Numbered from the stretch's first letter, positions 2,363 through 41,419 are shown. The stretch is DNA of 64,000 nucleotides from Eledone cirrhosa (GCA_964016885.1 OZ024741.1:191518001-191582000), one strand, 5' to 3'. Translations and numbers: made by a program. The notes: generated by a model from the letters alone, not told the origin.

Positions 2363-2514
2363 AACATTCTTCCCTTGTCAACGTTGGCTGGCAACCAATG
2401 AAGGTGATGGGCAAATTATGAGAGAACTGGTACCAGTGAATGCTTCTCTCAAGAAGAAATTACTTAAGCATGATTCTGAATATTTAAAAAACCAAATTGG
2501 TCTGGAAGTAAAAG
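2363..2514 (+). CDS. LOXHD1: LOXHD1-like exon, end of a PLAT repeat (about PLAT7) plus linker; upstream exons lie outside the window
   Basis: ttgcAG acceptor and G|GTttcc donor. Translates TFFPCQRWLATNEGDGQIMRELVPVN...IGLEVK, the PLAT FPCxRWLA motif. Phase 2 to phase 1. Confidence 0.9.
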
Positions 2515-6408: not shown

Positions 6409-6513
6409 CTCTGACGACCACCTACCACATAAAGGTGCACACTGCTGATAAGTGGGGTGCTGGTACTGATTCCAATGTCTATGTGATTCTATATGGCCAC
6501 CTGGATATCTCTG
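6409..6513 (+). CDS. LOXHD1: LOXHD1-like exon, PLAT8 start
   Basis: tacAG...G|GTAAGG. Translates LTTTYHIKVHTADKWGAGTDSNVYVILYGHLDIS, the GAGTDxNV motif. In frame with its neighbours. Confidence 0.93.
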
Positions 6514-7636: not shown

Positions 7637-7745
7637 GGAAAATATTGTTGAAATCTTCAGTTACTAACAGCAACAAGTTTGAACGAAACCAAATTGATGA
7701 ATTTATTGTTGAAGTTGTTGATATTGGAGAACTTCAGAAAATCAA
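7637..7745 (+). CDS. LOXHD1: LOXHD1-like exon, PLAT8 middle
   Basis: ttacAG...AA|GTATAG. Translates GKILLKSSVTNSNKFERNQIDEFIVEVVDIGELQKI, with the NKFER and DIG motifs. Confidence 0.93.
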
Positions 7746-8604: not shown

Positions 8605-8789
8605 AATTGGTCACGATGATGCTGGTATTGGAAGTGCATGGTGTTTGGATAAAGTCATTATTGATTGTCCCTCTCTTGGAAAAACCTGGAACTTCCCCTG
8701 TGACCGTTGGTTAGCAAAAGGTGAAGATGATGGCATGTTGGAGAGGGAACTTTATCCTCAACTATTATCAACAGAACAATACATTCCTT
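8605..8789 (+). CDS. LOXHD1: LOXHD1-like exon, PLAT8 end
   Basis: Polypyrimidine tract plus atAG, donor T|GTAAGT. Translates IGHDDAGIGSAWCLDKVIIDCPSLGKTWNFPCDRWLAKGEDDGMLERELYP. Confidence 0.95.
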
Positions 8790-10125: not shown

Positions 10126-10301
10126 ATATTCCATATGAAATAACTACATACACAGGGGACATATCTCAGGCATCCACTGATGCAGATGTTTATATTGCCC
10201 TCTACAGTAAAGACAAGAGAACACAACAGAAATCTCTGTGTCTCAAAAGTGAGAGAAAACAGAAATTTAAGAGAAATGGAGTTGATAAATTTATATTGGA
10301 G
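10126..10301 (+). CDS. LOXHD1: LOXHD1-like exon, PLAT9 start
   Basis: atcAG...GAG|GTAAGT. Translates IPYEITTYTGDISQASTDADVYIALYSKDKRTQQKSLC...FKRNGVDKFILE. Confidence 0.93.
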
Positions 10302-12333: not shown

Positions 12334-12450
12334 ATGGAAGATATTGGAGGTGGTATTGAAAAGATTCGCATTGGACATGATGGATCTGGTTTTGGAGCTG
12401 GCTGGTATCTTGCAAAAGTGGAAGTACGAAAGTTGATTTCTTCTGGAAAG
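12334..12450 (+). CDS. LOXHD1: LOXHD1-like exon, PLAT9 middle
   Basis: ttaAG...AAG|GTAAAA. Translates MEDIGGGIEKIRIGHDGSGFGAGWYLAKVEVRKLISSGK (start of ORF 12334..12549). Confidence 0.93.
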
Positions 12451-14204: not shown

Positions 14205-14927
14205 AGATACATCCTTATGTGGAGTTGAACTAAATGCAAGCCAACAAAACATTCATTAATTTGTACCTAAAAGCTAGTACCTATTTACAGCTAGCTGGAC
14301 TGAGCCTGTTGCAGACAGAATACAATGTTGACATGACAGAAGAAGCTTTAGTTTGATTATTCACTACCCTATTGACATAGTCTATTGTCTACTCCCCTAT
14401 TAAACCAACCATCATACACATTCTACTGTACCCTATAGACACATCAAAAATCCACACTGACTGTTGTCTATTACATTAATGATACAGCCACCCACCATCC
14501 TTGCATTCTGTTGTCCACAGCCCTTAGAGCAATAATAATATCCTTTTCAGGCCCTAAGCTTATAATGTGTCCTCTACCTCCTGTCCCAATATATAAAATC
14601 TCCAAAAAACATTTAATTTGAATAAAATGGTGCCCTTCTTCCCATGACAACCTAAGCATATGTTCTTATTTTGTTTGATCAGCCCTGTCTGCCCTAATAA
14701 TACAGCCATCCACACAGATCTATTTTGTCAACTACCCTATTGTCATGGACACCTGTTGTCTACATATCTTTTCACACAGCTACCATCCTCTAACCTCTAT
14801 TTTCCATGCCCCTATTGACACAGCTATCCCAACTCTCCACAGCCTCATATATCATCAGATACTCCAGTTTCTCACTGTAATATTAATCAAGTTCAACAGT
14901 TGTTCATCAGATATTGCTGTGTTGCAG

Positions 14928-15099
14928 AGTTCCAAAACTTTCGTATTTCCCTGTAACCGGTGGCTGGCAGAAGATGAAGATGATCAGTTAACTGAAAGGA
15001 TGCTGGTTGCTGAGACAACTGTCATTCAAGAATCAATAGGAGAAACAGGACATTTAAAGCATAAAGAAGATTCTGCCAGAGATCAAGGTTTACACAAGT
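14928..15099 (+). CDS. LOXHD1: LOXHD1-like exon, PLAT9 end plus linker
   Basis: ttgcAG...T|GTGAGT. Translates SSKTFVFPCNRWLAEDEDDQLTERMLVAE...DQGLHK. Ends in phase 1. Confidence 0.92.
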
Positions 15100-15369
15100 G
15101 TGAGTATGTGTATTGTATAAATTATGCCAATGTAAATATGTATACTTTACTATATATATATATATATTGTTATACTTTGGAAGGATCATCCTGCCAATAA
15201 AAACACACTTCAATTTATTATAATTTTCTGGCTGGTTGGTTGGTTTGATAACCAGATGGTTGTTTATATATTGTCAAAGCTCTTTTGTCACACATTCTGT
15301 GACTTCCTCAGTGACTGGGTTTTTATTTTGTGTCTCTCCTTTGTTCTTTCCCTCACCATGTTGTTTTTG

Positions 15370-15370
<1 letters not shown>

Positions 15371-15441
<71 letters not shown>
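15371..15441. repeat. (TA)n microsatellite
   Basis: Perfect TA run; source of the poly-IY ORFs in the track. Confidence 0.95.
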
Positions 15442-15445
<4 letters not shown>

Positions 15446-16357
15446 ATGTAATGAATAAAAACATATCAAATATGTTAGAATTTTGTGCTTCTCAATAAGC
15501 AAACTCAATAGACTTTATCCAATAGACTTTATTTAATAAATCAAATGTAAAGAATATATGTATATATATATAGAGAGAGAGAAAGAACCATATAACATAC
15601 AGAATACACAATATGTTATATATATATATATATATACTAAATACATATTTCAGAGATGAATATGTACTCAAGATGGAATCATTAGAGACCTTTAGAGCGC
15701 TATTTCGTATTCAGTAGATGTAATTTAAAATTAATCTATGTAATTGATTATCGATCACAAACAATCGATTATAATTAAACTATAGGAGACTCTGAATATT
15801 CATCAGAGGTATAGTCTTTAGCATTCAAGAGAAATATAGAAGCAAAAATAGTATATAGAACAATATACTTGCCAATATCCAGAGATGAATTTGATGCGAC
15901 TCACCATAATGAAAGCCACATGGTATGACTACGTTAAACCTAAGGCAATAGATATCAACAAAAGTGGATGTTTATTCCACTAGAGATAGGTACAGAAATT
16001 ATAGTCACCTCAGCTCAACAAGAAGTTTGCAGCTGTTGTATACACATGAAATGAATCTTGTATATAACAGCTCCAAAATTCTTAACTATATATTATACAG
16101 TCGTATACTGGCCAGGTTGCCAGGTTTCCCAATGGCAAGTGGGCCTCAGGGGCCTCATGGTAGTATTGCAGGGAGCCCCGCTGTAGTATTTTAGGGGCCA
16201 AAGCTTTGCTTTCAAAAAATATTTTTAAAAAAAGCAAAGCATTTGGTCAAGGAATTCCCCCAGAAACTAACAGTTGGAATCACTGGTTGTCTAAATTTAT
16301 AGCTTACTGTATTCATTCATGCATGCATACATATGTAGACACACACGCATATATATA

Positions 16358-18003
16358 TGGGTAAAGAAGTGCCAAGAAATCCCAGTAGAAGGAAGATGCA
16401 GTAAAGGTAGACCACGAAAAACATGGGCGGAGGTGGTGAGAGCAGACCTCAGATCGCTGAAACTCACCGAGGAGATGACGAAGGACCGTGACAAGTGGAG
16501 AGATGCTGTGCTGAATAGGACCCATCCAACCCTTGCAAGCAGGGAAAAGCGGACGTAAAATAATGATGATGATGATGATATATTTACAAGCCATGTATAG
16601 GGAAGCAGTTAGCAAAGTTACGGTTAACAATGAATATAGCGAGAAATTTAGTATACAGGTCAGTGTCCAACAAGGTTCTGTTCTTAGACCTCTCCTGTTT
16701 ATTATAATAGTGTTGCTAGCTATAACAGAGGAGTTTAAGACTGGATGCCCATGGGAACTTCTGTGTGCGGAACTAAAGAAGAAATTCCAAACATGGAAGC
16801 AGGGAATAGAAAGAAGGGATCTCAAAGTCAATCTGACAAAGACTAAGGTCCTCGTAAGTAGATGAGAAAACAGAAACCAGATCCCATCAGGAAAATGGCC
16901 TTGGTCAGTATGTAGGAAAGGTGTAAGTAGAAATTCCATCCTCTGCCCCAAATGCAAACTATGGGTACACAAGAGAGGCAGTGGGATCTCAGGAAGTTTA
17001 GTTAAGAATGTATGCTTTACATGTAGCAATTACACCGGGACAGTAAGCAGCAAATGGCCACAGGAAACAAGCACTACCAAATTCTGGGAGGGCTCTGTAG
17101 AAACAGTAGACAGCTTCTGCTACTTAGGTGACCAAATTAGCAGCGAAGTTGGGTGGTCTGAAAGTACAGTAACCAGGGTAAGAATGGGTTGGAAGACGTT
17201 CAGGGAGCTACTACCACTGCTAGCTGCAAAAGGCTTTTCCCTCAAAAGGATAGGCAGACTGTATGATGCATGCATATGAACATCAATGTTACATAGTAGT
17301 GAGACCTGGGCTTTGTGTGCAGAAGACTTGCGTAGATTAGAAAGAATCAAAGCTTGCATGCTCAGATGGATGTGTAATATACACGAACAGCAAAGCATAA
17401 ATGAAGTGAGAGAGAGACTGAGCATAAGAAGAATCAAATGGTGTGTGCAGGAGAGGAGGTTGAGTTGGTATGGACATGTGATGTGTATGAAGGACGACAG
17501 CTGCATAAAAAGGTGCAGAGCACTAAATGTCAATGGAAGCCTTGGAGTGGGGAGACCCAACAAGACCTCGGATGAGGTGATAAAAGCTGACCTTTCCCAA
17601 TTGCACCTCTCAAAGGTGATGACACACAACCGTGACCTCTGGCGTCACGCAGTATTACAGAAGACCCGACTTCCCACAGGTACAAGCTGAAGCTGAAGCA
17701 TATAGACAGTATGCCCCCCCCCATCTCCTACTGTAAAGTGGTCGTGGAGGTCTCATGACAAAAAAGTACCCAATCCACACTGTAAAGTGGTTGTGTAGGT
17801 GCTATGATAAAAAAGCACCCAGTACTCACTGTAAATGAGGTTGGTGTAAGGGAGGGTATCCAGCTGTAGAAATCAAGCCAAAATCAGTTCTGTATGAGCA
17901 AGATATGTTCACCTGACCTAGCATTGCCCACAACAAGACATATTGTCTAACCCATGCTAGCGTGGAAGAATGGACGTAAAACGGTGATGATGATGATGAT
18001 GAT
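16358..18003 (+). mobile_element. Two abutting RTE fragments: family A 3' end (16358-16578) and family B RT-to-tail (16580-18003)
   Basis: Contains QGSVLRPLLF, GCPWELL, SETW and LSWYGHVM, with two (GAT)n tails. Confidence 0.9.
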
Positions 18004-18014
18004 ATATATATATG

Positions 18015-18805
18015 TCTAGGGTGGGTAAAATTCCCGAGATCCATGGACGAGTTCTCTCCAGCTGTCTCTGCCCCTCATTATCGCTGCCATGTTCTGCGTC
18101 TCCAGTGTCTGCTCTTAGGGCATCAACATATGTTAACCTCGGTCTTCCTCTTCCAGTGTGTCCATGCAAGGGCTCCTACAAGAGCACTGAGTGCAATGCC
18201 AACTCTGGATGTCGGTGAGCATGTCCAGCTAACCTCAGTCTCTTCTGGGCTACTCTCGAGCTGACATTTGGGAGGCTCACATACATGTCTGAGTTCTTCA
18301 TCCTCAGTGTATACTGATTAATGTTCAGAGCCATCCTCATCATTCTCGTGTAGCACCCATCCACCATCTGAGTGAGTTTCTTGGTCAGTGTCCAAGTCTC
18401 AGACCCATACAGCAGCACAGACTCTACTACAGCAACAAAGAGACGGATCTTCAGGTCTTTACGAAGGTCTGACTTCCACACCGATCTCAAGCTGTGAATT
18501 TGCCAACAACATAGTTCTGGTGACAAACACAGTGAAGGAGGCAAAGGATTTGATGCAGGAGGTGGAGATTGTGTCGATGAGTGTGGGGCTGAGAATGAAT
18601 GAAATTAAGATGAAGTATCTGGTAGAGAATATTAAGAAGCAAGAGAAGATTACTAGTGTAGGCAGGAAGCCACTAGAATTGCTTGAGGACTTCCTGTATT
18701 TGGGAGCAAAGATTGGGAATACGGAAGATGATGTGGTCGAGAGGAAGAACAAAGCCTGGGCAGCATGCAAGCTGTGGCACACTTCCCAGGCTTTGCTCTT
18801 TAGAA
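18015..18805. mobile_element. RTE-like LINE fragment (same family as 4312-4692) with inverted internal segment
   Basis: Minus-strand C-terminus at 18015-18497. Plus-strand RT piece FANNIVLV...FLYLGA...KAWAAC at about 18498-18767. Confidence 0.75.
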
Positions 18806-19009
18806 AAGGGAAGTAAGGTTCAATACAAAACAGTGGATATAGAGAAAAGGTGAAGTTTGAAATAGCACGGAAAATATATTTAAGGGTCTGTTTTTCTCTT
18901 TTGATTTGTCAAAGTGACATTATTGAAAAGATAACATTATTGAAAAAATGAGAGGGACAATTCTTTTTAAAAAAAAGTTTTATAATATATATAAAGTATA
19001 TATATAATT

Positions 19010-20835
19010 CACACTGCAAAATAACACTGAAATAACCATCAAAGAAGCTGATAAAGGGAGTACTGTGGTTATTATGGACACTGAGTACTATAGAGACCTG
19101 GTACTCAAAATCTTAGATGACAATAGATACTACGCAAAAACAGTAAACTACAAACAAACTAACACAATGGGGAACCTCCTAGCATTACTACAAAAATACA
19201 GCAGAAGCCTAACCACAAAAGAATTTGAATACATAGGCCATTTCAAATGTAATACAAGTGCTTTCTACGGCTTACCGAAGATAAATGCATACAATTAACA
19301 CCACCAGAAGACTTAAAACTCAGACCAATTATAGCAGGCTCTGCATGTGAAACCCACGGACTTAGCAACTTCCTGGATATCCAATTAAAGCCCTTACTAA
19401 AATATATACAGAGCTACATATGGGATGACCTTGATATGCTGAACCACCTACCCAAAACAGTAAGTGAAAGCACTATTCTTGTCTCCTTTGACGTAGTAAA
19501 CCTCTACACTAACACACCCCATAACTATGGAATAATAGCAATCCAGTGTTGACTAGACACTCACCAATCTGAAATACCAACACGCATCAACAAAAACTTC
19601 ATTATTGATGGACTCTGATTTATCTTACAGAATAATTTCTTTACTTTCAATGACTCAACATACCGACAAATCTCATGAATTGCAATGGGCACAAAGGTAG
19701 TCATGGGATTCCACGAACAACAAATCTACAACCAATCCCTTCTATTATTCGGAGACTCTTTCCTTATACATCTCAAAAATAATTGGAAGAGATACCTAGA
19801 CAATTGCTTTATACTATGGCAGGAAGACATGAATGCACTCTTTTCAAAAATATGATTAACAATATTAATAATATACAATTCACAATGGAATCTAACTCCA
19901 AGAAATTAGCCTTCTTGGATATTCTCATTCTAAAAACAGATGGGAAAATAGAAACAGACATCTTTTATAAACCCACGGACTCCAAACAGTACCTCCTTTT
20001 CACATCAAATCACCCAAAACATACAAAACTTAACATTCCTTTTAATTTAGCCAAACGTATATGCACCATAATATCAGGCCCAACTTAACGGGAACAAAGA
20101 CTAAATGAACTCAAAAACACACTTACCTTAAAAAACATACTTTCCCACTTGACATAATTAATAAAGGAATAGACAAAGCAAAACACGCAAATTTTCATCA
20201 ACCCAACAACCCAAAACACAGAACCACAAACAATACCTTACCAAATGTATCCACGTTCAACCCCAGAAACACCGAAATGTTCGACCTTCTACACAAAAAC
20301 CTACCCATTCTATTTAAAGATGAAAAAATGAAAAAAATTCTAAAAACACACAAGATCATTAAAAGCAAAAGGCAACCAAAATCACTAAAACACATTCTCA
20401 CTGGAACAAATATTCACAAACCTATCTCCAACCTTACGGTAACAAAATGTGGAAGAACAAATTGTGGAACATGCCTATACTTAACTGAAGGACAAAAATT
20501 CACATTTAAAGATGGCCAAACTTTCACAGTGAAAAACAACTTCACTTGCAACTCGGAGAACCTGATCTATGTAATCACATGTGGTGGCTGTCAACATAAC
20601 TATATAGGACAGACGGAGTTGTTGTTACGCAAAAGAAGGACCATCCATCACCAACAAATCCGAGACGTAAACACAAGGAAAATCCCCTTAAGTAGCCACA
20701 TTGCAGAGTGTGCAGGAATGACTCTACCCAACTTTAAAATCTTCCCTCTTTACAAGTGCTCCAATTCTTTCACTCAACAACCAAGAATAAATAAAGAAAA
20801 GCTATTGTTAACAAATTTAAACGAAAACTAAATAT
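19010..20835 (+). mobile_element. Penelope-like element (RT plus GIY-YIG), pseudogenised
   Basis: Contains IKEADKGSTVVIMD, FYGLPKI, LRPII, SFDVVNLYTN, RYLDNCF, FLDILI, YKPTDSKQYL, SNHPKHTK and CGTC...LIYVITC..C...YIGQT. Interrupted by stops and frameshifts. Confidence 0.92.
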
Positions 20836-21699
20836 GTAATCACCCCCATTAGACCCCCCATACACACACACCACAAAACAGTTTTTAGTTTTTGACAATT
20901 TTCTTAATTTTTTTTTTAAAATTTTTAATTTCCCACCACAAAGGGATCTGTGACAAACAGGCTGAACCCCCCCCCCCCCCACACACACATATGTGCATTG
21001 TTATATATATATGTGTGTGTTTGTGTGTGTATATATATATATATATATATACACAAACGCATACCACAAAATAAGAGAGAAAAAATTACTCATTGCAGAA
21101 GTTACTGCTCGTACTACTGATATTTTACTCTGGCTTTTTCTTAAAGAATCTTTTAAAATTTTTTAATTTTTGGATTCTGAGAATCCTTTGGATTTTAGTT
21201 TTTAATTTTTGACAATTTTCTGAATTTTTAAGAAAAAAATTTTCTTAATTTCCTACCACAAAGGGATCTATGACAGACAGACTGAAAAACAAAACACACA
21301 ACCCCCCCCCCCCCCCCACACACACACACACACATGTGTGTATTGCTAAAGGACCTGTGACAGACAGACTGAAAAAAACACACACACACACACACGTGTG
21401 TATTGTTATATATACACCCTCATTCTCTCTCTCTATATATATATACACACACTCCCTAAAACCACATTCCAATAATAGAATTTCTCCTGCTGCTTCCACA
21501 GAACTTACCTCTAGCTTACAATTTCCCATCCCCTTTTGAACTTTTGACCAGTCAATTAACACAATCAGATATACACACACAGGCTGTGATGAAACACAAC
21601 TACTGCTATCTTCTCCGACCACCAAATTTGGAGCAAGAAGGATGATTTTAATTTTAAACCCTTAGTTTTTAACTCCTATTAATTCTTTTAGTGTCCGGT

Positions 21700-21965
21700 C
21701 AGCTGACCTTGTCTTGCTCATACAGGAACTGATCCTGGCTTGATTTCTACAGCTGGATGCCCTTCCTAACACCAACCTCATTTACAGTGAGTGCTGGGTG
21801 CTTTTTTTTCCGTGGCGCCTACACGTCCACTTTACAGTGTCGGCTGGGTGCTTTTTTTGCCGTGACACCTCCACGACCACTTTGCAGTGGGAGGAGGTGG
21901 GGGCGTATTGTCTATATGCTTCAGCTTTGGCTTATACCCGTGGGAAGTCGGGTCTTCTGTATTAC
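21700..21965 (-). mobile_element. RTE family B 3' UTR fragment
   Basis: Matches 35395-35660. Confidence 0.75.
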
Positions 21966-22079
21966 TGTATTACTTTACAGTGTGGGCAAAAAACTGCCAT
22001 CTTACTTACATTGTGTACACTCTGAATGGTGGCTTGCATTTTCTCACTTTCAAGCCTATTATCTCATTGAGTGAGTGAG

Positions 22080-22350
22080 TAATAACCAGATCTCGCTGAT
22101 ATAAATCAAGAATAAAAACCAGATACTGCAATAGCCTGGAGTTCAAAGGCCCCCAGCTCTTTAATAAGCCACCAAAAAGTCTGGGAGATCTACATGACGT
22201 GCAGGTTTTCGAGAAATTCTTGACATTCAACTAACCAAGATCTCAGATGAACCCATAGCACAAGAAGCACAAGAAAGGCTGGCTCTAGAAAGTGTACTAT
22301 CAATGGCAGTGCCCCAGCATGGCCTCAGCCAATCTGCTGGAGTGCGTAAA
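22080..22350 (+). mobile_element. CR1-group LINE 3' fragment
   Basis: Translates RIKTRYCNSLEFKGPQLFNKPPKSL...FEKFLDIQLTKISDEP, a typical ORF2 C-terminus. Confidence 0.6.
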
Positions 22351-23846
22351 AGAGTAAATATCTATCTATATACTACTAAAACTCTGTGATTGTGTCCTTG
22401 TCTGTTATTTAATACAGCCAAAACGTCACATAATGGGAAAATACTTTGAAAGGAAGTTGCCCCTGAAATGGGAATACAAATGGAATAAAACAAGTTTCAC
22501 ATAAATCGGAGCACAAGTTCCCGAGATACAGGGTTTTTCCGGGTACCTTCATAAATAGAGAGAGACAAAGATAGAGAGAAAGATATAGTGGTTGTGAGAG
22601 AGTAGATTGAAAGAGAGACATAGAAAGAAAGAACGAGACAGAGAAGGATAGTGGAAGAGGGAGAGAGCTGGTGGTGTTGTTGAATGAAATTATAATATGT
22701 GACTTCAAAGAATCGAATACAGCATTACTGTATCTAGCTCGAATAAGGTGACTGAATATTAAGTCATATATATCGTATAACTTGTGTAGCGAATATTTCC
22801 TGCTAAATAGGAAGGGCATCCAGCTGTAGAAAACCAGCCAGAAACAGTTCTATACAAGCGATACATGGTCACCCAACCAATCTTGCCGCAAGTGGGACAA
22901 ACCCGTCTAACACATACGTTGAAGATGATGATATATATATATGTGTGTGTGTCTGTGACCAATGTATATAGGTCACAGACACCCATATATATATATATGT
23001 GTATATGCACACACACATATATATGGGCCTTCCAATTTAATTTAACATTATATACATGTCTGTGTATATTTTAATTATTTAAAAATTATTTTTAAGTGAA
23101 CATGATTTTTTTAAAATAGCTTAAGGGAAACTTGACCCAACGGATCACAGATGGTTTAGTATATGATAAAGTTATATCTGTATAAATACAGAGTGTGTAA
23201 CCAAGAGCGCAAATATCAAATATGTAGGCATGTAAACATGGTAAGCATGCCAGAAAATATGAATTTCTCCATAGTAATTAGTAATATTTTGAAATGGGCA
23301 TACTAATTTGCATATAATTAGTGCTTTTTTGGTAATTAATTAAGATATATAGGAAGAACTGTGCTACCAGCCAAAGGGTATGATAAAGTTATATCTGTAT
23401 AAATACAGAGAGTGTAACCAAGATTGGACCATGTATAAATATATACACATATCTAATATGTAAGCATGTTAACATGCCAGAAAATACAAATTTCCTTGTA
23501 GATTAAAAAAATGATTAACGTCTTTAATCGATTTTCCATTATACCCATCAAATTTATGTTTACTTTTGGTTGTTTAGATGATATACGCGTCTTCTGATGA
23601 GGGACCATGCATAATATTACATATTTTATACATATGTTATATTGCATAATTTATATACACATACAATAATGCATATTTTATATTCATATGTGTAATATTA
23701 CATATTTTATATACATGTGTAATATTACATATTTAGTATTGCGTAATTTATATACACATGTAACATTTCATATTTGATATAAACATATTTAATATTGTAT
23801 ATTTTATATACACCTGTGTAATATTACATATTTTATATTGGTCCAG

Positions 23847-23963
23847 CGAGAAAATACAAGAAATATACTCACAAAGAACTGTTTGACATCCGAGAGAAGT
23901 GTATTGAATTTGGACATAACACAGAACATAACACACCAGACCGTATCCACCAAAGAAAGCAAG
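23847..23963 (+). CDS. Candidate non-PLAT linker/cassette exon of the LOXHD1-like gene
   Basis: ttttatattggtccAG acceptor and AAG|GTATAT donor. 117 nt, phase 1-1, stop-free (RKYKKYTHKELFDIREKCIEFGHNTEHNTPDRIHQRKQ). No recognisable homology. Confidence 0.4.
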
Positions 23964-24854
23964 GTATATTTTGTGATGGATCACATAGAGATATTTCATA
24001 CTATATTTTTGTTAATGTATTTACCTTGTATTAAATATACAATGGTAAAGAAAACTGGATATAATTTAATTAAATGCGCACAAAAATATACACATTTTAT
24101 ATCTTTATGTCCTGAGTTTAATTCCCAATACCGATTCACTTTCCTTTGCATCTTCTTTATAAAATAGCAGCAGTTAACTCTTTTAACATCAAACTGCCTG
24201 AAACGGCTCTATGATACAAAATTGTTTATTTTAAAGTGTTTATATTTATCTAAAAACCTCCCATCATGATTTTATGATGTTATGTTCCAAAACCCAACTG
24301 AATAATGAAAATGTTAGTTATATTATGAAGTTCCTCCAAATTGTTGATTATTTTCCAAATGATTTGAAAATTAGAGGCATGTGGTAATGAAAGAGATAAA
24401 ACATCATGGCAAAAAGCATTGCCACATTACCTATGATAGATATTAATGTTATTAAATATGTGACCTTGTGTCTAACTTAGAAATCATCAGGGTGGGGGGA
24501 AAATTGTGAGAGCACCAAACAAAATTCCACTGGGGTAGACTTACCTTTCATGATTCTGTGTTCAATAAAATAAGTACCACTCATGTACTGTGGTTAATTT
24601 AATTAATAAACTTCTTCCACCAAATGTGTGGCCCCGTGCCAATGTTAGAAATTATTACTTAACTCTTTTCATCTCAAACTACCTGAAACTGCCCTTGGCT
24701 GATTTTAAAATGTTATATTTATCTAAAAATTTCAATCAATTTTATGCAAGAACATTTGTTAAGTTATGTTTGAAATCCCAGCTTAATAATGAGAAATTTT
24801 GTTATTTTTCTAAATCTCTTGAAATCGATGGTTATTTTCAAAATTATTTGAAAA

Positions 24855-26868
24855 TTATTTCTCACCACACAGCTTACAAGGTGGGGAATTCACTGACTTA
24901 TCAATATTGAACTTGATATAGTTCATTCTCAGTGCCTGTCCCTGGGCTACAAAAATAAGGGCCTCAGATTCAACTTTTAAGTCACTTTTCCTAGTCCATT
25001 CCCAGTTACTATCTTTGTCAACTGTCTCAGGCATTTCACGTACGAATTGACCATAGATTTTTTTTCTTCCATCTATTCAATGTGTCATTCTGTATATCTT
25101 GTTTAAATTCTCCCTTTCCATTGCTTCATCACTGTTTAGGACCTTTATCATTCTTACTCCTGCCATCAATCTCCCCTTTGAATTCTTTACATACCATGCC
25201 AGATTATTTTCCTTTGACTTCACATACATTTCACAGCTAATAAGACCTCTTTGTCATGATAGACACAACCTGTCTACATCCCTTTTGGGGATGTAGATCC
25301 CCTTGTAGTGTCATCATCTTCCTGGTTTTTCTATCAAGCTCCTTAAGTTCATCACATTCCCCTCTATCACACCAGCGCTATACGTTAGCACTGCAACAGC
25401 CCATGTGTTGATAGCCAGTATCTTATTCCTACCACTTAACTTTGTCTTTAACACCAACTTTAGTCTGTGTTTATATTCTTTCATTTCCTTCTCTTTCATT
25501 TGGTTTGTTTCCAGGATGGCTAAGTACTTATATCTGTTGTCATGAAATTCCTTCATAACTTGTCCATTTGGTAATTCAATTCCTTCCATCTTATCAATTC
25601 TACCTCGCTTCAGTAGTAGCACACCACATTTTTTATGCCAAATTCCATTCCTATGTCTGTACTGAATGTAAGAACTCTCTGTACAAGGGAATCAATATGT
25701 TCATAGGATTTGCCATAAAGTTTTAGGTCATCCATGAACAACAGGTGATTTATCCTTAACTCACGTCCTCCCCACTCATAGCCAGCCTTTGACCTCAACA
25801 CCATTGAAAGTGGAACCATACACAGTACAAACAACAAAAGTGAAAGAATGTCTCCATGAAATATTCCGCTCTTGATCTTCACAACTCCCAATGTTTATCT
25901 ACATGATGTCAGCTCAGTCTCCCAACCATCCATACTGCTCATAGAAACTGTCTAATGTTAGCTGCAATACCAAATATTTCCAAACATTCTACTATCCAAC
26001 TATGTGGCACCATGTTGTAAACCTTGCAGTAATCAATCCAGGCCATGACAAGATTTGTGTATCTCCTTTTACAATCTTTAAGGATCACCTTATCAATCAA
26101 CAATTGATCCTTAGTCCCTTGCTTCTTCTCTTACCTCCCTTCTGCTCTACAGGTAGTGTCTTCTCCAGGTATTCATACATTGCCTCAGCAATGACACCTG
26201 TCATAAGTTTCCACATAAGAGGGAGGCAAGAGATAGGTCTAAAGTTATCAACTTCATTTCCATTGCTGGGGTCCTTCAAAGACAAAGTCATTCTCCCAAA
26301 GGTTAGCTATTCTGGCAACCTCTCTTCTCTATTCAAGATCTTATTCAGTTGCTCAGCAATTCTCTCAGGAAGGGCCCTCAGCTTTTCCAACCAGGATCCT
26401 TGCACGTCGTCTCTGCGGGGAGTTTTTTTCAATTTGGTATCTTTCTATACTGGATATTTACCATATCAGTTGTTATCTTCAATTCTCCCTGTTGATTATC
26501 CCCAATGTCATATTTGATGTTAGCCACTCCACACTTCTATATTCCTACACTTCAGATACCACTCCAAAACTTCTTACTTTCATCCACATCAGGGATTATA
26601 TTATCATTCCTAACCAAGCCATTTACCTCCTGATAGAATCTCCTCTGATTTTGTTGGAAACGTACATTCTGTTTATACTGTGTGATCTGTTGTTCATATC
26701 TTTGCAGCTTTGGAAACTACCTTTTGTTTCAGCTCCTCAGTTACCATAGTAACCTTCTTTCTCCTGACATTGTACTTCCCTGTAAGTTGCTCAATCCCTC
26801 CACCCCACACACTTTTTAATTCACCTCACGTTACCCTTTCCAGAATATTGATATCTTTCCTAATCTTG
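24855..26868 (-). mobile_element. Dong/R4-clade retrotransposon fragment (RT and start of zinc knuckle)
   Basis: Contains [61 protein letters not shown] and ESEALIFVAQGQAL...CKLC. Confidence 0.88.
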
Positions 26869-26871
26869 TAG

Positions 26872-27010
26872 ATTACAGAGTGATCATAGCAACATCTGAC
26901 CAGAAAGATGCTGGCATTTCAGATGGGATATGGCTCCTTTTGGAAGGATACAAGCAAACACCTCATATTTTTGAAAATATCAAAAATTCCCAGGGAAAAT
27001 TCTTCAAAAG
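26872..27010 (+). CDS. LOXHD1: LOXHD1-like exon, start of the divergent penultimate PLAT (PLAT14-like)
   Basis: ttgtAG...AG|GTAAAA. Translates YRVIIATSDQKDAGISDGIWLLLEGYKQ...GKFFKR. The WLxLEG motif is recalled as typical of the penultimate repeat. Confidence 0.85.
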
Positions 27011-27458
27011 GTAAAATTTTCTGAAAATTTCATTAAATCACTGTCTGATTTGTTGTCAATAACCCCCCTCCCCCCCTCCCCCAAAAAAGAAAAAACATTT
27101 TAAATGTCAAAGTACCATGACTTAAACTAGTGGCACAGTTTCTATATTATACAACCTAATACTATACGAGCATCTACATGGTCACTAACAAAATCTTCCT
27201 CAACTGGAATGTCTTTGATCATGCCATCTTTGATCGTGTCATCTTGATCAATTTATCTTTGATCATGTCCTCTTTGAGTGGTACTTAATCAACCCTGTAA
27301 TGATGAAAAGTAAAGTTGACATTGGTAGAATTTGAACTGATTGTGCTGGGAATCAGAATAATTATTGCTAAGAATTCTACCTGACATGTAAATAACTGCC
27401 AATTCACTGCCTTGTATAAATAAGGCTTACCTATATGCCTTCTATATATACATATATT

Positions 27459-29918: not shown

Positions 29919-30095
29919 AGGGCAGACAGATGGTTTTCTGTTCGCCTGTTCACCTATTGGAGAGATAAAGAACTGCTATTTAGGAGCACTGAGAAATGAA
30001 GAATCATCATCATCGTCATCATTATATAGATCTTCTAAATCCAACTATTGGTTGTGTGATCAGGTGACTGTCATTGATGAAACAACGAAGAAAAT
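29919..30095 (+). CDS. LOXHD1: LOXHD1-like exon, penultimate PLAT middle
   Basis: ctacAG...AT|GTATGT. Translates GQTDGFLFACSPIGEIKNCYLGAL...YWLCDQVTVIDETTKK. Phase 2-2 joins both neighbours. Confidence 0.87.
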
Positions 30096-35074: not shown

Positions 35075-35193
35075 ATATATCTTTCAATGTAATAATTCGG
35101 TGAAAGTAACACAGAAAATATCCAAGGAAGATTCAGTGAAACTATGTTTGGTAGAAACAATGCAAGATAAACCACCTCCACAAAAGAAAGCAA
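35075..35193 (+). CDS. LOXHD1: LOXHD1-like exon, penultimate PLAT end plus linker
   Basis: ttttctcccattcAG...A|GTAAGT. Translates YIFQCNNSVKVTQKISKEDSVKLCLVETMQDKPPPQKKA. Phase 2 to phase 1 fits the chain. Confidence 0.82.
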
Positions 35194-37644: not shown

Positions 37645-37833
37645 GGGAGATGGTCGACTATGAGATGCAAGTGTACACTGGAGATGTGAAACATGCAGGA
37701 ACTGATGCCAATGTCCACATCAATATATTTGGGGAAGATGGAGAAACAGGCAGACAACCACTAAAACAGAGATTTAAGGATTTGTTTGAGAGAAACCAGA
37801 AAGATACATTCATTATAAAAAGTCTAGATTTAG
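37645..37833 (+). CDS. LOXHD1: LOXHD1-like exon, last PLAT (PLAT15) start
   Basis: ttcAG...AG|GTAAGT. Translates VDYEMQVYTGDVKHAGTDANVHINIFGEDGETGRQPLKQRFKDLFERNQKDTFIIKSLDL. Confidence 0.95.
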
Positions 37834-38730
37834 GTAAGTAGTTTTTCTTAATTTCTTGGCAAGTTTAAAATATATCCAATCTTTATGCAGGAAGCAACAT
37901 GGTTAAGACGTTTGTTTCACAATTATGAGATTCCAGGTTCATTCTCACTCTGTGGACAAGTTTTTTTTAATCAAACCTTGTGAGAGGTTTTTGAAATTAT
38001 GTGGAAGTCTAAAAATTAGTTTATTCAAATCTTTACTAATGGAGAGATAATTGTGAAAGTCATAGTTCTGTTTGATACCTTTTTAAGAATGCCCTCATGG
38101 ATGCCATTTCATGTGCTGAGAAACTGGTTATTGATGATAAAATTTAATTAATTAAAATTTATGCATTCAAATTTAGCAATTTAATTAACAAACATTGATA
38201 AAGTATCATTTCAATTTATATTCAGAGATGTAATTTCTAACTGAATTAAAAATATTTAACACTATCTTCCTTCCACTCTACATTCCAGACAAGGCACTGG
38301 AATTTTTGTCCAGGCTAGAATATCACACCATATATATTATTAACTCTATTACTGTAGCCTTCATAACTCATTTATTTGGTACAAATGTTATGGATTGTCC
38401 TTTGTTAAACTTTATAATCCAACTAGCAGAGAAATAACAAACATAAAATGGAATAGTTCAACTACAAATAGTACCCTTAACATCATTTATGACCATATCT
38501 CTAATGAAATACTACATTACTACATTTGTTCTGACTCAACATTCTATTAAATTCACCTTTCATCCTTCTGGAGTTGATAAAATAAAGTGAGGTTGATGTA
38601 ATTGAATCTCCCTATATTTGCTAGCCTTGCACCTGAACTGGAAGTCAATGTATTTAACTTAATCAACTATTACTCAATATTTTCTATCACCTTAAAAAAA
38701 CAACCTATTCAATGGTCTTTTATTTTGCAG

Positions 38731-38909
38731 GCAAATTAACCAGTCTCTTTGTAGAACAGGATAGTTCAGGATTTCAATCTGGATGGTTTCTAGACTGTAT
38801 TGAGGTAATCAATAAAACTACACAGGAAAAATCAATATTTCCGTGTAAAACCTGGTTAGACAAGAAAACTGGAGCAACATCAATATATTTAAAGCCACAG
38901 AACAATTAG
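38731..38909 (+). CDS. LOXHD1: LOXHD1-like terminal coding exon with stop codon
   Basis: ttttgcAG acceptor. Translates KLTSLFVEQDSSGFQSGWFLDCIEV...IFPCKTWLDKKTG...PQNN*, TAG at 38907-38909. Confidence 0.95.
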
Positions 38910-39015
38910 CAACGAAGCAATGTCCGACCAATCAGCAATGAAGCAATGACAAGACAATTAGCAACGAAGCAAATACCCAACAATTAGCAACAAAGTAATG
39001 ACATAATTAGCAAGT
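38900..39015 (+). repeat. ~26-bp tandem repeat spanning the stop codon and proximal 3' UTR
   Basis: About five caattagcaacgaagcaa-like units. Confidence 0.75.
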
Positions 39016-39109
39016 GTTGAAAGCAAGACAGAACAGTGGAGCAACTGCGATATATTTTGAACCAGATTTATACAATCACAGAACAATGAACAAATGTTGA
39101 AATGTGCAG

Positions 39110-39200
39110 TAAAATAAAATATTCAAGCTATATTATATTTCATGTAATTTTTTTTTGTTTTCTAAATAAAGATTATTTAGAAAAACCTTTGAATAAATGC
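39110..39200 (+). promoter_or_regulatory. Candidate polyadenylation signals
   Basis: Three AATAAA hexamers about 200-290 nt after the stop. The region is AT-rich, so chance occurrence is possible. Confidence 0.4.
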
Positions 39201-39779
39201 TCAATCTGTTGATACAGCTTCTGTACTTTATCTAAAAACTAAATCCTTCAAAATTTCAGAAATTAGGGAATGTTAAAGAAAGAATTTAATGATTCCACCA
39301 GTCTTTCTTGTTTAAAAATATATAACTTCCATGAAATCTGCTTCTCTGGTTGTGTGCAATATCTCCCCCACAAGATCTGTCAGCCAATATCAAAGGGAAG
39401 ATGATTCTTGTAACAATGTGTAACTCATTTTTCCTTTGTGACCGTATATGATAATTTCCCTTAGTATTTGACACTACTTCCCAAAGCAAAATAATGAAAA
39501 TGAATAGTTTTTTAACAAAAACTGCTCGAAGTTTATAAATTAAGATAAAAGCATGACATTTTCAGTGAAGATTCCAAACTAAATTTTTTAAGAATATTGC
39601 AAAACGATTTCATTCTATTTACAGATTATTAATTAAAATAAACAATTTTATATAAAATGTAGGCAAAAACACGAAAAAAAAATTATTTTCTGTCAGTATC
39701 AACATATACATACATTTAAAGGGCTTGAAACAGTTAATACAAAGATTTGCATTGCTCACAGTCTGTTTTGGGGTCCATT

Positions 39780-40610
39780 TTAATATTTTATTTGAAACAT
39801 TGTTTGCAAGTTCTTTTTTTCTTTAAGTCTTCAGGCCAGTGCATGGCAGCCTGAACCTGGAAAACTTCTTCCAGGGTCATTTTCCTTTTATAGGAATAGA
39901 CCCCAATAAGTTGATGGGCCAGGTTCATTCATTTCCTTGCCTTTTCTAGACAGGAGTTTATGGTTTGGGGATTCTTTCATCAACACAAATAATGAACATA
40001 TAGCCACATCAACAAAATAGAATAAATACTTCAACCATTTATTCAACTTTCTTCCAAAGCAGTAGCTGGCTCTCAACTGGTCTGCATGGTCTACTCCATT
40101 CATGTGCTCCATATAGTCTGTTACTGCCCTCGGACAAGGCACAATGCAGTGTTCCCTGCTCTTTTATTTTTGCCAGACACTTATTAAATCATTGGGACTG
40201 GAATTTGTGGTCAACAGTGTCAGTCGTGCCACCAACAGCTTTTGGAATGATTTCCTATTTTTTCTTATTGTGCAGCAAGCATAGGTCTCATTCTATAAAA
40301 AGTTCCTGAAAGTGGTGAATTTTTTCCCCCATATGTCCTTTGTGAGGTCCTTCACGACTCTTTCTCCAAGTCCTTGTTCCATTTGATTTGGGACTTTCCC
40401 TGTTATGAACATGGAAGTTTTTACATAGCCGTTGTATGGATCAGCCCGCATCTACATTTTTATCCCATGCTTTGTAGGCTTCAGTGGAAGATATTGTTTG
40501 AAGCCAAGATGTCCAGTGCAAGCAATCATTACCTCATCAATCAATGTTTCAGTGTTGATTGTACTGTGACTTCAAGTTCCCACGTATCCTTTCAATAAAT
40601 AGCTGAAAAT
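39780..40610 (-). mobile_element. piggyBac-family transposase relic
   Basis: Contains PCPRAVTDYMEHMNGVDHADQL...RKLNKW and IDEVMIACTG..GFKQYLPLKPTKHGIK. Disrupted. Confidence 0.82.
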
Positions 40611-41419
40611 GGACATGTTTATATACATATGTTTACAGGTATATTTATATATACACACACACATGTCTACCAAGACAACACAGATACTTGTAACGGAATT
40701 TCACAAAGTTTAGGTTTTCATTCTACCTTTACTTCGTTATTTTTCCTTATCAATGTTTTATTATGAAGTTGTGAATGTAATTATGGCGAATACATTGATG
40801 TTTCATTGTCGGGTGTTATTAATTGTTCAAGATATTTTTACCTGGTAGACTTGAAGTCCTCTGTATGTCCCCTTGACTGTAAAATTGATCTGCAATTTTA
40901 TTCCAGTGACCATCAATAATGACAGCAATAGTATTGAATGTATTTAAGTTTTAGAGACTAGGTTTGATATGCAGAAATTACCAGGATAACTGGATACAGG
41001 AAGAATCATCTCCAAATTTAGAAATTCATATTTTCATAAATAAGTTATTTACATAAGAGAAACCCTATAGTTTATGTTGATTACTGACACATAGAAATGA
41101 TTAAAGGTGAAAATGATATTTTGATAATATATTTCTAGAATACAATTACATAAATGTTCAGCATATATGGACATACAGGGATAAATGTATGAGTAACTTT
41201 GGAGAAATAACTTTTTACAGGGACAAATGTAGGTTTAGAACCCAGGACCTTGTGGTTGGAAAGTAATACATGTGCATCTGTGTGTATAAATATACATTAT
41301 AGTGTAATATATATATATATAAACATATTATCTCAAGGAAGCCTGCTCAGTGCACTCTACATGTGAGTGGAGTTCCACTGAAGCATGTGGAGAGTATCTC
41401 GGGGCTGTGTTCATAAGTG

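Follow-up and report, generated by a model that had tools for sequence, protein, structure and literature searches.

The described systems against which the present locus can be set are the LOXHD1 genes of vertebrates (DFNB77; mouse alleles samba, I1342N, and T1308X) and those of gastropods and bivalves, the closest non-cephalopod orthologues. Mouse LOXHD1 is reported to co-precipitate with TMC1, CIB2, LHFPL5 and PCDH15 (PMC11387651), and mouse PLAT10 mutants lose most of the transduction current by P11, although an in-frame transcript devoid of PLAT10 is made (PMC8051682). In the T1308X mutant, PLAT10 exons 28-32 are skipped in frame (PMC8051682). In the accessible parts of these accounts, no partner is pinned to a single LOXHD1 repeat.

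Full-length LOXHD1 orthologues, including that of mink, present 16 repeats (R1-R16), some of them with an additional N-terminal repeat, and in the records examined, from sea urchin, flatworms, molluscs and vertebrates, the repeats stand in the same order. The mouse cDNA numbering counts 15 repeats, and R11-R14 correspond to mouse PLAT10-13. The mouse residues T1308, I1342 and P1420, whose positions derive from the PLAT10 primers and alleles of mouse Loxhd1 (PMC8051682), were placed at T1510, I1544 and P1622 of the mink record, that is, 202 residues further on and all of them on R11. Since the PLAT10 primers and alleles fell on R11, mouse PLAT10 was equated with this repeat, and by this correspondence R11-R14 contain the samba residue (mouse I1342). 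The 202-residue offset is probably accounted for by the alternative coiled-coil exons 19-20; a form of mouse LOXHD1 without these exons exists (PMC11387651).

Here, the 3′ end of LOXHD1 was analyzed in a 64,000-nt stretch of Eledone cirrhosa DNA, positions 191,518,001-191,582,000 of contig C2, hereafter the window. We consider it likely that octopod LOXHD1 is devoid of R11-R14, with R10 spliced in frame via a short linker to R15, and that the block was lost in a common ancestor of the octopods examined, between phase-1 introns.

Repeat Composition of the LOXHD1 3′ End in the Window

The window, which contains no N, carries the end of R8 followed by R9, R10, R15 and R16 of the 16-repeat series. 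Thirteen exons with AG/GT ends form a single open frame of 644 codons, running from position 2363 to a stop at 38909 (Table 1). The exon at 8605-8789 shared 87% and 82% identity with the Octopus and Argonauta LOXHD1 records, respectively. A phase-1 intron precedes each of R9, R10, R15 and R16, and the donor at 15099 is also of phase 1. The first-pass annotation had proposed that this donor leads in frame to a phase-1 acceptor at 26872, and indeed GT and AG were present and the frame was open to 38909. The frame was also kept when exon 8 (23847-23963) was omitted, the direct 15099-26872 join being open to the same stop.

Table 1. Features of the LOXHD1 3′ end in the window (positions counted from its first nucleotide).
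Feature	Position	Strand	Basis
LOXHD1 exon, R8 end and R8-R9 linker	2363-2514	+	Splice sites, HMM best R8, frame
Exon, R9 (mouse PLAT8), first part	6409-6513	+	Splice sites, HMM, frame
Exon, R9 middle	7637-7745	+	Splice sites, HMM, frame
Exon, R9 end	8605-8789	+	Splice sites, HMM, frame; 87% identity to Octopus records
Exon, R10 (mouse PLAT9), first part	10126-10301	+	Splice sites, HMM, frame, tree
Exon, R10 middle	12334-12450	+	Splice sites, HMM, frame
Exon, R10 end and ancestral R10-R11 linker, phase-1 donor	14928-15099	+	X4 contig record 25; junction profile 13.0 bits
Intron, high-copy repeats and retroelement relics, without PLAT exon	15100-23846	+	HMM scan, word depth, Pfam
Linker exon, 117 nt, phase 1-1, 39 codons, non-PLAT	23847-23963	+	Splice sites, X4 record 25, alignment with Octopus and Argonauta
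Intron, minus-strand reverse-transcriptase relic, without PLAT exon	23964-26871	+	RVT_1 E=2.7e-7 at 25613-25894
Exon, R15 (mouse PLAT14), first part, phase-1 acceptor	26872-27010	+	HMM R15 30.5 bits, next 12.5; X4 record 25
Exon, R15 middle	29919-30095	+	HMM, frame; counterpart skipped in O. bimaculoides isoform X2 and Argonauta model
Exon, R15 end and R15-R16 linker	35075-35193	+	Splice sites, HMM, frame
Exon, R16 (mouse PLAT15), first half	37645-37833	+	Splice sites, HMM, frame, tree
Last coding exon, R16 second half and stop codon	38731-38909	+	Splice sites, HMM, frame

Repeat identity was assigned with one HMM per repeat position, built from the 12 non-octopod rows of an alignment of 14 orthologues, and with a tree of 54 single repeats. 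The HMMs classed the window exons as R8-end, R9, R10, R15 and R16, with margins that are small for some true LOXHD1 exons. In the tree, the window R10, R15 and R16 fell in starred clades of the same number, and R9 in a starred mollusc R9 clade, the R9 rows forming an open fork with R12. The repeat identities of the first-pass annotation were therefore retained, while its numbering turned out to be the 15-repeat scheme of the mouse cDNA, against 16 in full-length orthologues. The window exons thus match PLAT models in tandem, at the fixed positions and in the conserved order of a LOXHD1 orthologue (HMM classes and tree), and the complete set of 15-16 repeats, PLAT10-13 among them, was not found, R11-R14 being absent, which defines a shortened variant. 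Compared with vertebrate LOXHD1, R1-R10, R15 and R16 have the same identities and order, whereas the octopod gene is devoid of R11-R14 and carries a 39-residue non-PLAT exon. Moreover, the in-frame modular loss of four repeats, mouse PLAT10 among them, that had been postulated from the window was borne out by the HMM and tree classes, the open frame and a spliced contig.

Search for R11-R14 in the Interval and in the Genome

The 16 models were run on stop-free segments of both strands of the interval 15100-26871, and no PLAT exon was detected there, the best score being 5.6 bits. This is below the best of each of five shuffles (6.8-8.8 bits), and the true PLAT exons of the window reached 17-83 bits; PLAT10-13 exons are thus lacking between these positions, as had been noticed at first sight. 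The interval presented very high word depth in runs X1-X3, 3,217 of its 11,772 bases matched other DNA compared, and one of its 12 candidate retroelement frames contained a reverse transcriptase (Pfam, cut-off E 0.01). The earlier description of this DNA as transposon relics and AT-rich sequence alone does not hold, since it encloses the 117-nt phase 1-1 coding exon at 23847-23963.

The whole 3.0-Gb assembly was searched in a loose first pass, which can miss short diverged exons, and returned 34 matches for the PLAT family, 30 for gastropod R11-R14 and 24 for a second R11-R14 fragment. After HMM scoring, no R11-R14 exon of LOXHD1 was found among all places from these searches, in agreement with what the loss had predicted for PLAT10-13 across the assembly; one place scored below 9 bits on every repeat HMM. 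Collinear LOXHD1 exons on contig C2 (190.73-191.56 Mb) began with the end of a repeat preceding R1, followed by R1-R10, R15 and R16. R1-R3 and the end of this additional N-terminal repeat lie up to ~780 kb upstream of the window, with gaps of 155-285 kb separating R1-R3 from the other exons, and this arrangement suggests a gene of 13 repeats over ~820 kb. The possibility that displaced R11-R14 make up the PLAT cluster at C2:190.73-190.94 Mb was considered and rejected, since the cluster classed as R1, R2 and the end of the extra N-terminal repeat. Seven places on other contigs had R14 as the best or tied best class, at 32-63 bits with margins of 0-16. Three of the seven were whole domains in open frames of >1,100 aa, where the whole R14 of an orthologue scores ~190-215 bits. 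All seven were read as putative single-PLAT domains of other genes, which we take to be polycystin-like from their motifs.

Transcript Evidence for the R10-Linker-R15 Join

The 15099-to-23847 junction that the first-pass annotation had suggested seeking in RNA was present, without mismatch, on record 25 of the X4 contigs (1,426 nt, depth 7.4). Positions 945-1118, 1119-1233 and 1234-1374 of this record matched 14926-15099, 23847-23961 and 26870-27010 of the window with no mismatches or gaps. The two-base offsets at the joints correspond to an AG common to both sides, and the splices are thus 15099-23847 and 23963-26872. Because introns are missing from it, contigs of X1-X3 continue past the same exon boundaries into genomic sequence, and the linker is single-copy, record 25 was read as cDNA. 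This transcript support consists of one contig from one run of one study, with junctions compared within 14600-27300.

It could be argued that R11-R14 do exist and were collapsed, misjoined or placed elsewhere in the assembly, given that the interval is repeat-rich and that no read or contig in the runs searched spans 15100-26871 as a whole. However, the spliced contig crosses both junctions, the same junction of R10 with the linker is seen in the separate assemblies of three Octopus species (O. sinensis, O. bimaculoides and O. vulgaris) and of Argonauta, and the whole-genome searches yielded no R11-R14 exons. Such an artefact, which the first-pass annotation had named as a threat to its proposal, is thus very improbable.

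Distribution and Minimum Age of the Loss

Among the matches listed, 126 proteins have R10 together with R15 or R16; all of R11-R14 are kept in 123 of these, and the three without them belong to O. sinensis, O. vulgaris and Argonauta hians; the orthologue set draws on the best 120 of 970 matches, a ranking that favours proteins with many repeats and could hide other short forms. The O. bimaculoides isoforms are likewise devoid of R11-R14. These octopod models (O. sinensis XP_036363166, O. bimaculoides XP_052827371, Argonauta hians GAB1599835 and O. vulgaris CAI9730794) share with the window both the loss and a homologous linker, and their records contain 7-9 PLAT (PF01477) stretches, the sole other Pfam family above the cut-off being the overlapping DUF7755. 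They begin at the end of R3 or later, whereas the window's genome has upstream R1-R3 exons, and the O. vulgaris model is patchy, with R15 and a portion of R8-R9 missing as well. It is possible that the Argonauta and O. vulgaris models were derived from Octopus models by homology.

In contrast, R11-R14 are kept in seven gastropod and bivalve genera (Lottia, Plakobranchus, Nucella, Biomphalaria, Batillaria, Sinanodonta and Mactra), and hence the loss is not ancestral to molluscs, as the idea of a lineage-specific deletion presupposed. In these molluscs, R8-R10 are 60-64% identical to those of O. sinensis and R15 is far better conserved within this group, and the window retains their R10-R11 linker. 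R11-R14 are also kept in records from a sea urchin and from Macrostomum and Heterobilharzia, and a soft-coral record, itself partial, covers R3-R13. Protein P0147 was rejected as a convergent short form, its sibling Heterobilharzia record having 16 repeats plus one.

The four-repeat loss is common to octopods, not peculiar to the window, and, judging from these gene models, cannot be younger than the divergence of Octopus and Argonauta. This is a minimum age within cephalopods, because the matches listed (including the best 120 of 970) contain no squid, cuttlefish or Nautilus orthologue, which is not evidence of absence. Although the architecture is already visible in public gene models, no account of the repeat architecture of cephalopod LOXHD1 was found in the literature searched (subscription journals and bioRxiv supplements lay outside its scope). 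Three papers that name both LOXHD1 and Octopus mention each of them once.

Breakpoint and Linker Exon

The tail encoded by 14928-15099 scored 13.0 bits on the R10-R11 junction profile, a value reached by none of 300 shuffles; the O. sinensis and Argonauta tails were not significant on this profile. Since the window tail still matches the ancestral R10-R11 linker, the 5′ break was probably in the intron just before R11, with loss of whole exons. Whether in a single step or in more than one, the removal of whole exons flanked by introns of the same phase would have allowed the frame to survive. The in-frame skipping of PLAT10 in the mouse T1308X mutant resembles this in-frame loss.

The linker exon occurs at one place only in the genome and aligns with the R10-R15 linker of the Octopus and Argonauta models. 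No significant match was obtained with the deleted region of seven molluscs (shuffle p 0.135-0.925) or with the 15 inter-repeat junction profiles (best p 0.18), and searches returned no Pfam family, a best E of 1.7 in PDB and a best of 0.77 in the Atlas. A resemblance to the R14 end, noticed by eye, found no support. To judge from these comparisons, the exon may have newly arisen or may be an unrecognisable remnant.

A Y-x4-L-hydrophobic pattern, noticed post hoc, is present in the window and Octopus linkers, Argonauta having I in place of L; this pattern is the eIF4E-binding consensus as given in PMC5291280. Octopods could have replaced the four LOXHD1 repeats on which mammalian hair-cell transduction depends by a newly recruited exon of 39 residues that brings a conserved binding motif of its own. 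The scaffold would thereby have been rewired towards ciliary mechanosensors that have no tip links, or towards a new partner, for instance eIF4E. We regard this as unlikely, and a motif of the eIF4E-binding type in the linker found no support in Pfam, PDB or the Atlas.

Probable Relaxed Constraint on a Shortened Scaffold

Octopod R15 is only 27% identical to that of other molluscs, against 57% among those molluscs, and its stem branch reached 1.73 in the single-repeat tree. Among conserved columns, O. sinensis keeps 56/62 in R8, 51/56 in R9, 55/66 in R10 and 40/49 in R16, and 14/24 in R15. Moreover, O. bimaculoides isoform X2 and the Argonauta model both omit the middle exon of R15, and R4 is reduced too (39% vs 59%). 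The long R15 branch, the low identities of R15 and R4 and the skipping in isoform models could also be taken to mean that the gene is degenerating from its 3′ half, with a shortened product of little function. Against this decay stand the 644-codon open frame, the spliced contig and the large share of conserved columns that R8-R10 and R16 keep across genera, which make it quite improbable.

Because R15 diverged fast, keeps 14 of 24 columns and has its middle exon skipped in two models, we favour the view that constraint was relaxed over R11-R15, in a scaffold that would still be working. As R8-R10 and R16 keep most conserved residues, we infer that the shortened product would still work as a membrane-associated multi-PLAT scaffold. 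Whatever R11-R14 bound would have become dispensable, and the relaxation would have extended to R15.

Implications for Octopod LOXHD1

The mouse offers a contrast to the octopod condition, as PLAT10 mutants there lose most of their transduction current by P11 although an isoform without PLAT10 is made. One could propose that the loss was an adaptation by which LOXHD1 was retuned for the hair cells with multiple kinocilia in the statocyst of cephalopods. In the jellyfish Aurelia, LOXHD1 expression is reported around the statocyst and in hair cells (PMC11250803), and kinociliary groups occur on statocyst hair cells of squid and cuttlefish, the animals that the accessible part of PMC6215419 covers, octopods not being included. 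Matches to the TMC and LHFPL families are present in the window's genome, and the linker exon is conserved in three octopod lineages. However, no cephalopod LOXHD1 expression data were found in the literature searched, no run with a tissue on record was among those examined, and LOXHD1 had no match in four supplement files of a squid atlas. The matches listed contained no squid or Nautilus record by which the loss could be dated against statocyst evolution, and the fast change of R15 and its exon skipping fit relaxation equally. Adaptive retuning thus appears unlikely, and the divergence of R15 fits relaxation at least as well as adaptation.

A role of octopod LOXHD1 in the statocyst is plausible by analogy with the systems described. 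A natural spliced allele without PLAT10-13, common to several octopods, offers a ready design for mapping partners to repeats, and the loss, as a rare genomic change, could mark a node in cephalopod phylogeny.

Linker and R15 exons

The best-conserved stretch of the linker exon, the non-PLAT exon between PLAT repeats R10 and R15, was a Y-x4-L-hydrophobic pattern found in the window and in Octopus, with I replacing L in Argonauta. By sequence, this pattern would correspond to the eIF4E-binding consensus; it was spotted post hoc, and its chance occurrence was roughly estimated from composition at ~2% per 39 residues. The window exon began one codon shorter than in Octopus and Argonauta, suggesting a 3-nt shift of the acceptor at 23847. 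Further downstream, both the Argonauta model and isoform X2 of O. bimaculoides lacked the 177 nt matching the middle R15 exon, a frame-neutral difference.

Separately, broken frames upstream of the linker exon resembled by eye a Penelope-type retroelement, presumably comprising a reverse transcriptase and a GIY-YIG-like end; Pfam at E 0.01 gave no match for these frames.

Coordinates of the features on the contig carrying the window (G000:C2, E. cirrhosa)
Feature	Location	Strand	Remark
Retroelement-like frames	window 19000-20830
Linker exon	window 23847-23963
Middle R15 exon	window 29919-30095		serine run
Source of 3′ copy	window 38547-40622
3′ copy (~1.8 kb)	L037:5006-6839 (C2 ~194.058 Mb)
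Collinear LOXHD1 exons	190,735,000-191,557,000	+	stretches L021, L002, L020, L022, L023, L038, L003, L004, L039

Repeat number and gene extent

Position-specific HMMs revealed 16 PLAT repeats in full-length vertebrate LOXHD1 (protein records P0135, P0012 and others). The figure usually quoted is 15, and in the mouse cDNA with 15 repeats halves of R7 and R8 are likely fused.

The 3′ end of the gene was also found duplicated 2.5 Mb away, where the last LOXHD1 exon was 91.6% identical to the window and the DNA downstream 77%. The R16 frame of this copy was interrupted by a stop, and it is probably a non-coding segmental copy.

Upstream, the end of a pre-R1 repeat and R1, R2, R3 and R4 were encoded by collinear plus-strand exons, with gaps of ~155 and ~285 kb inside R2, and this collinearity suggests a single LOXHD1 gene of ~820 kb. 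Since public octopod models begin at the R3 end or later, it may be that these models are truncated or that the gene is split.
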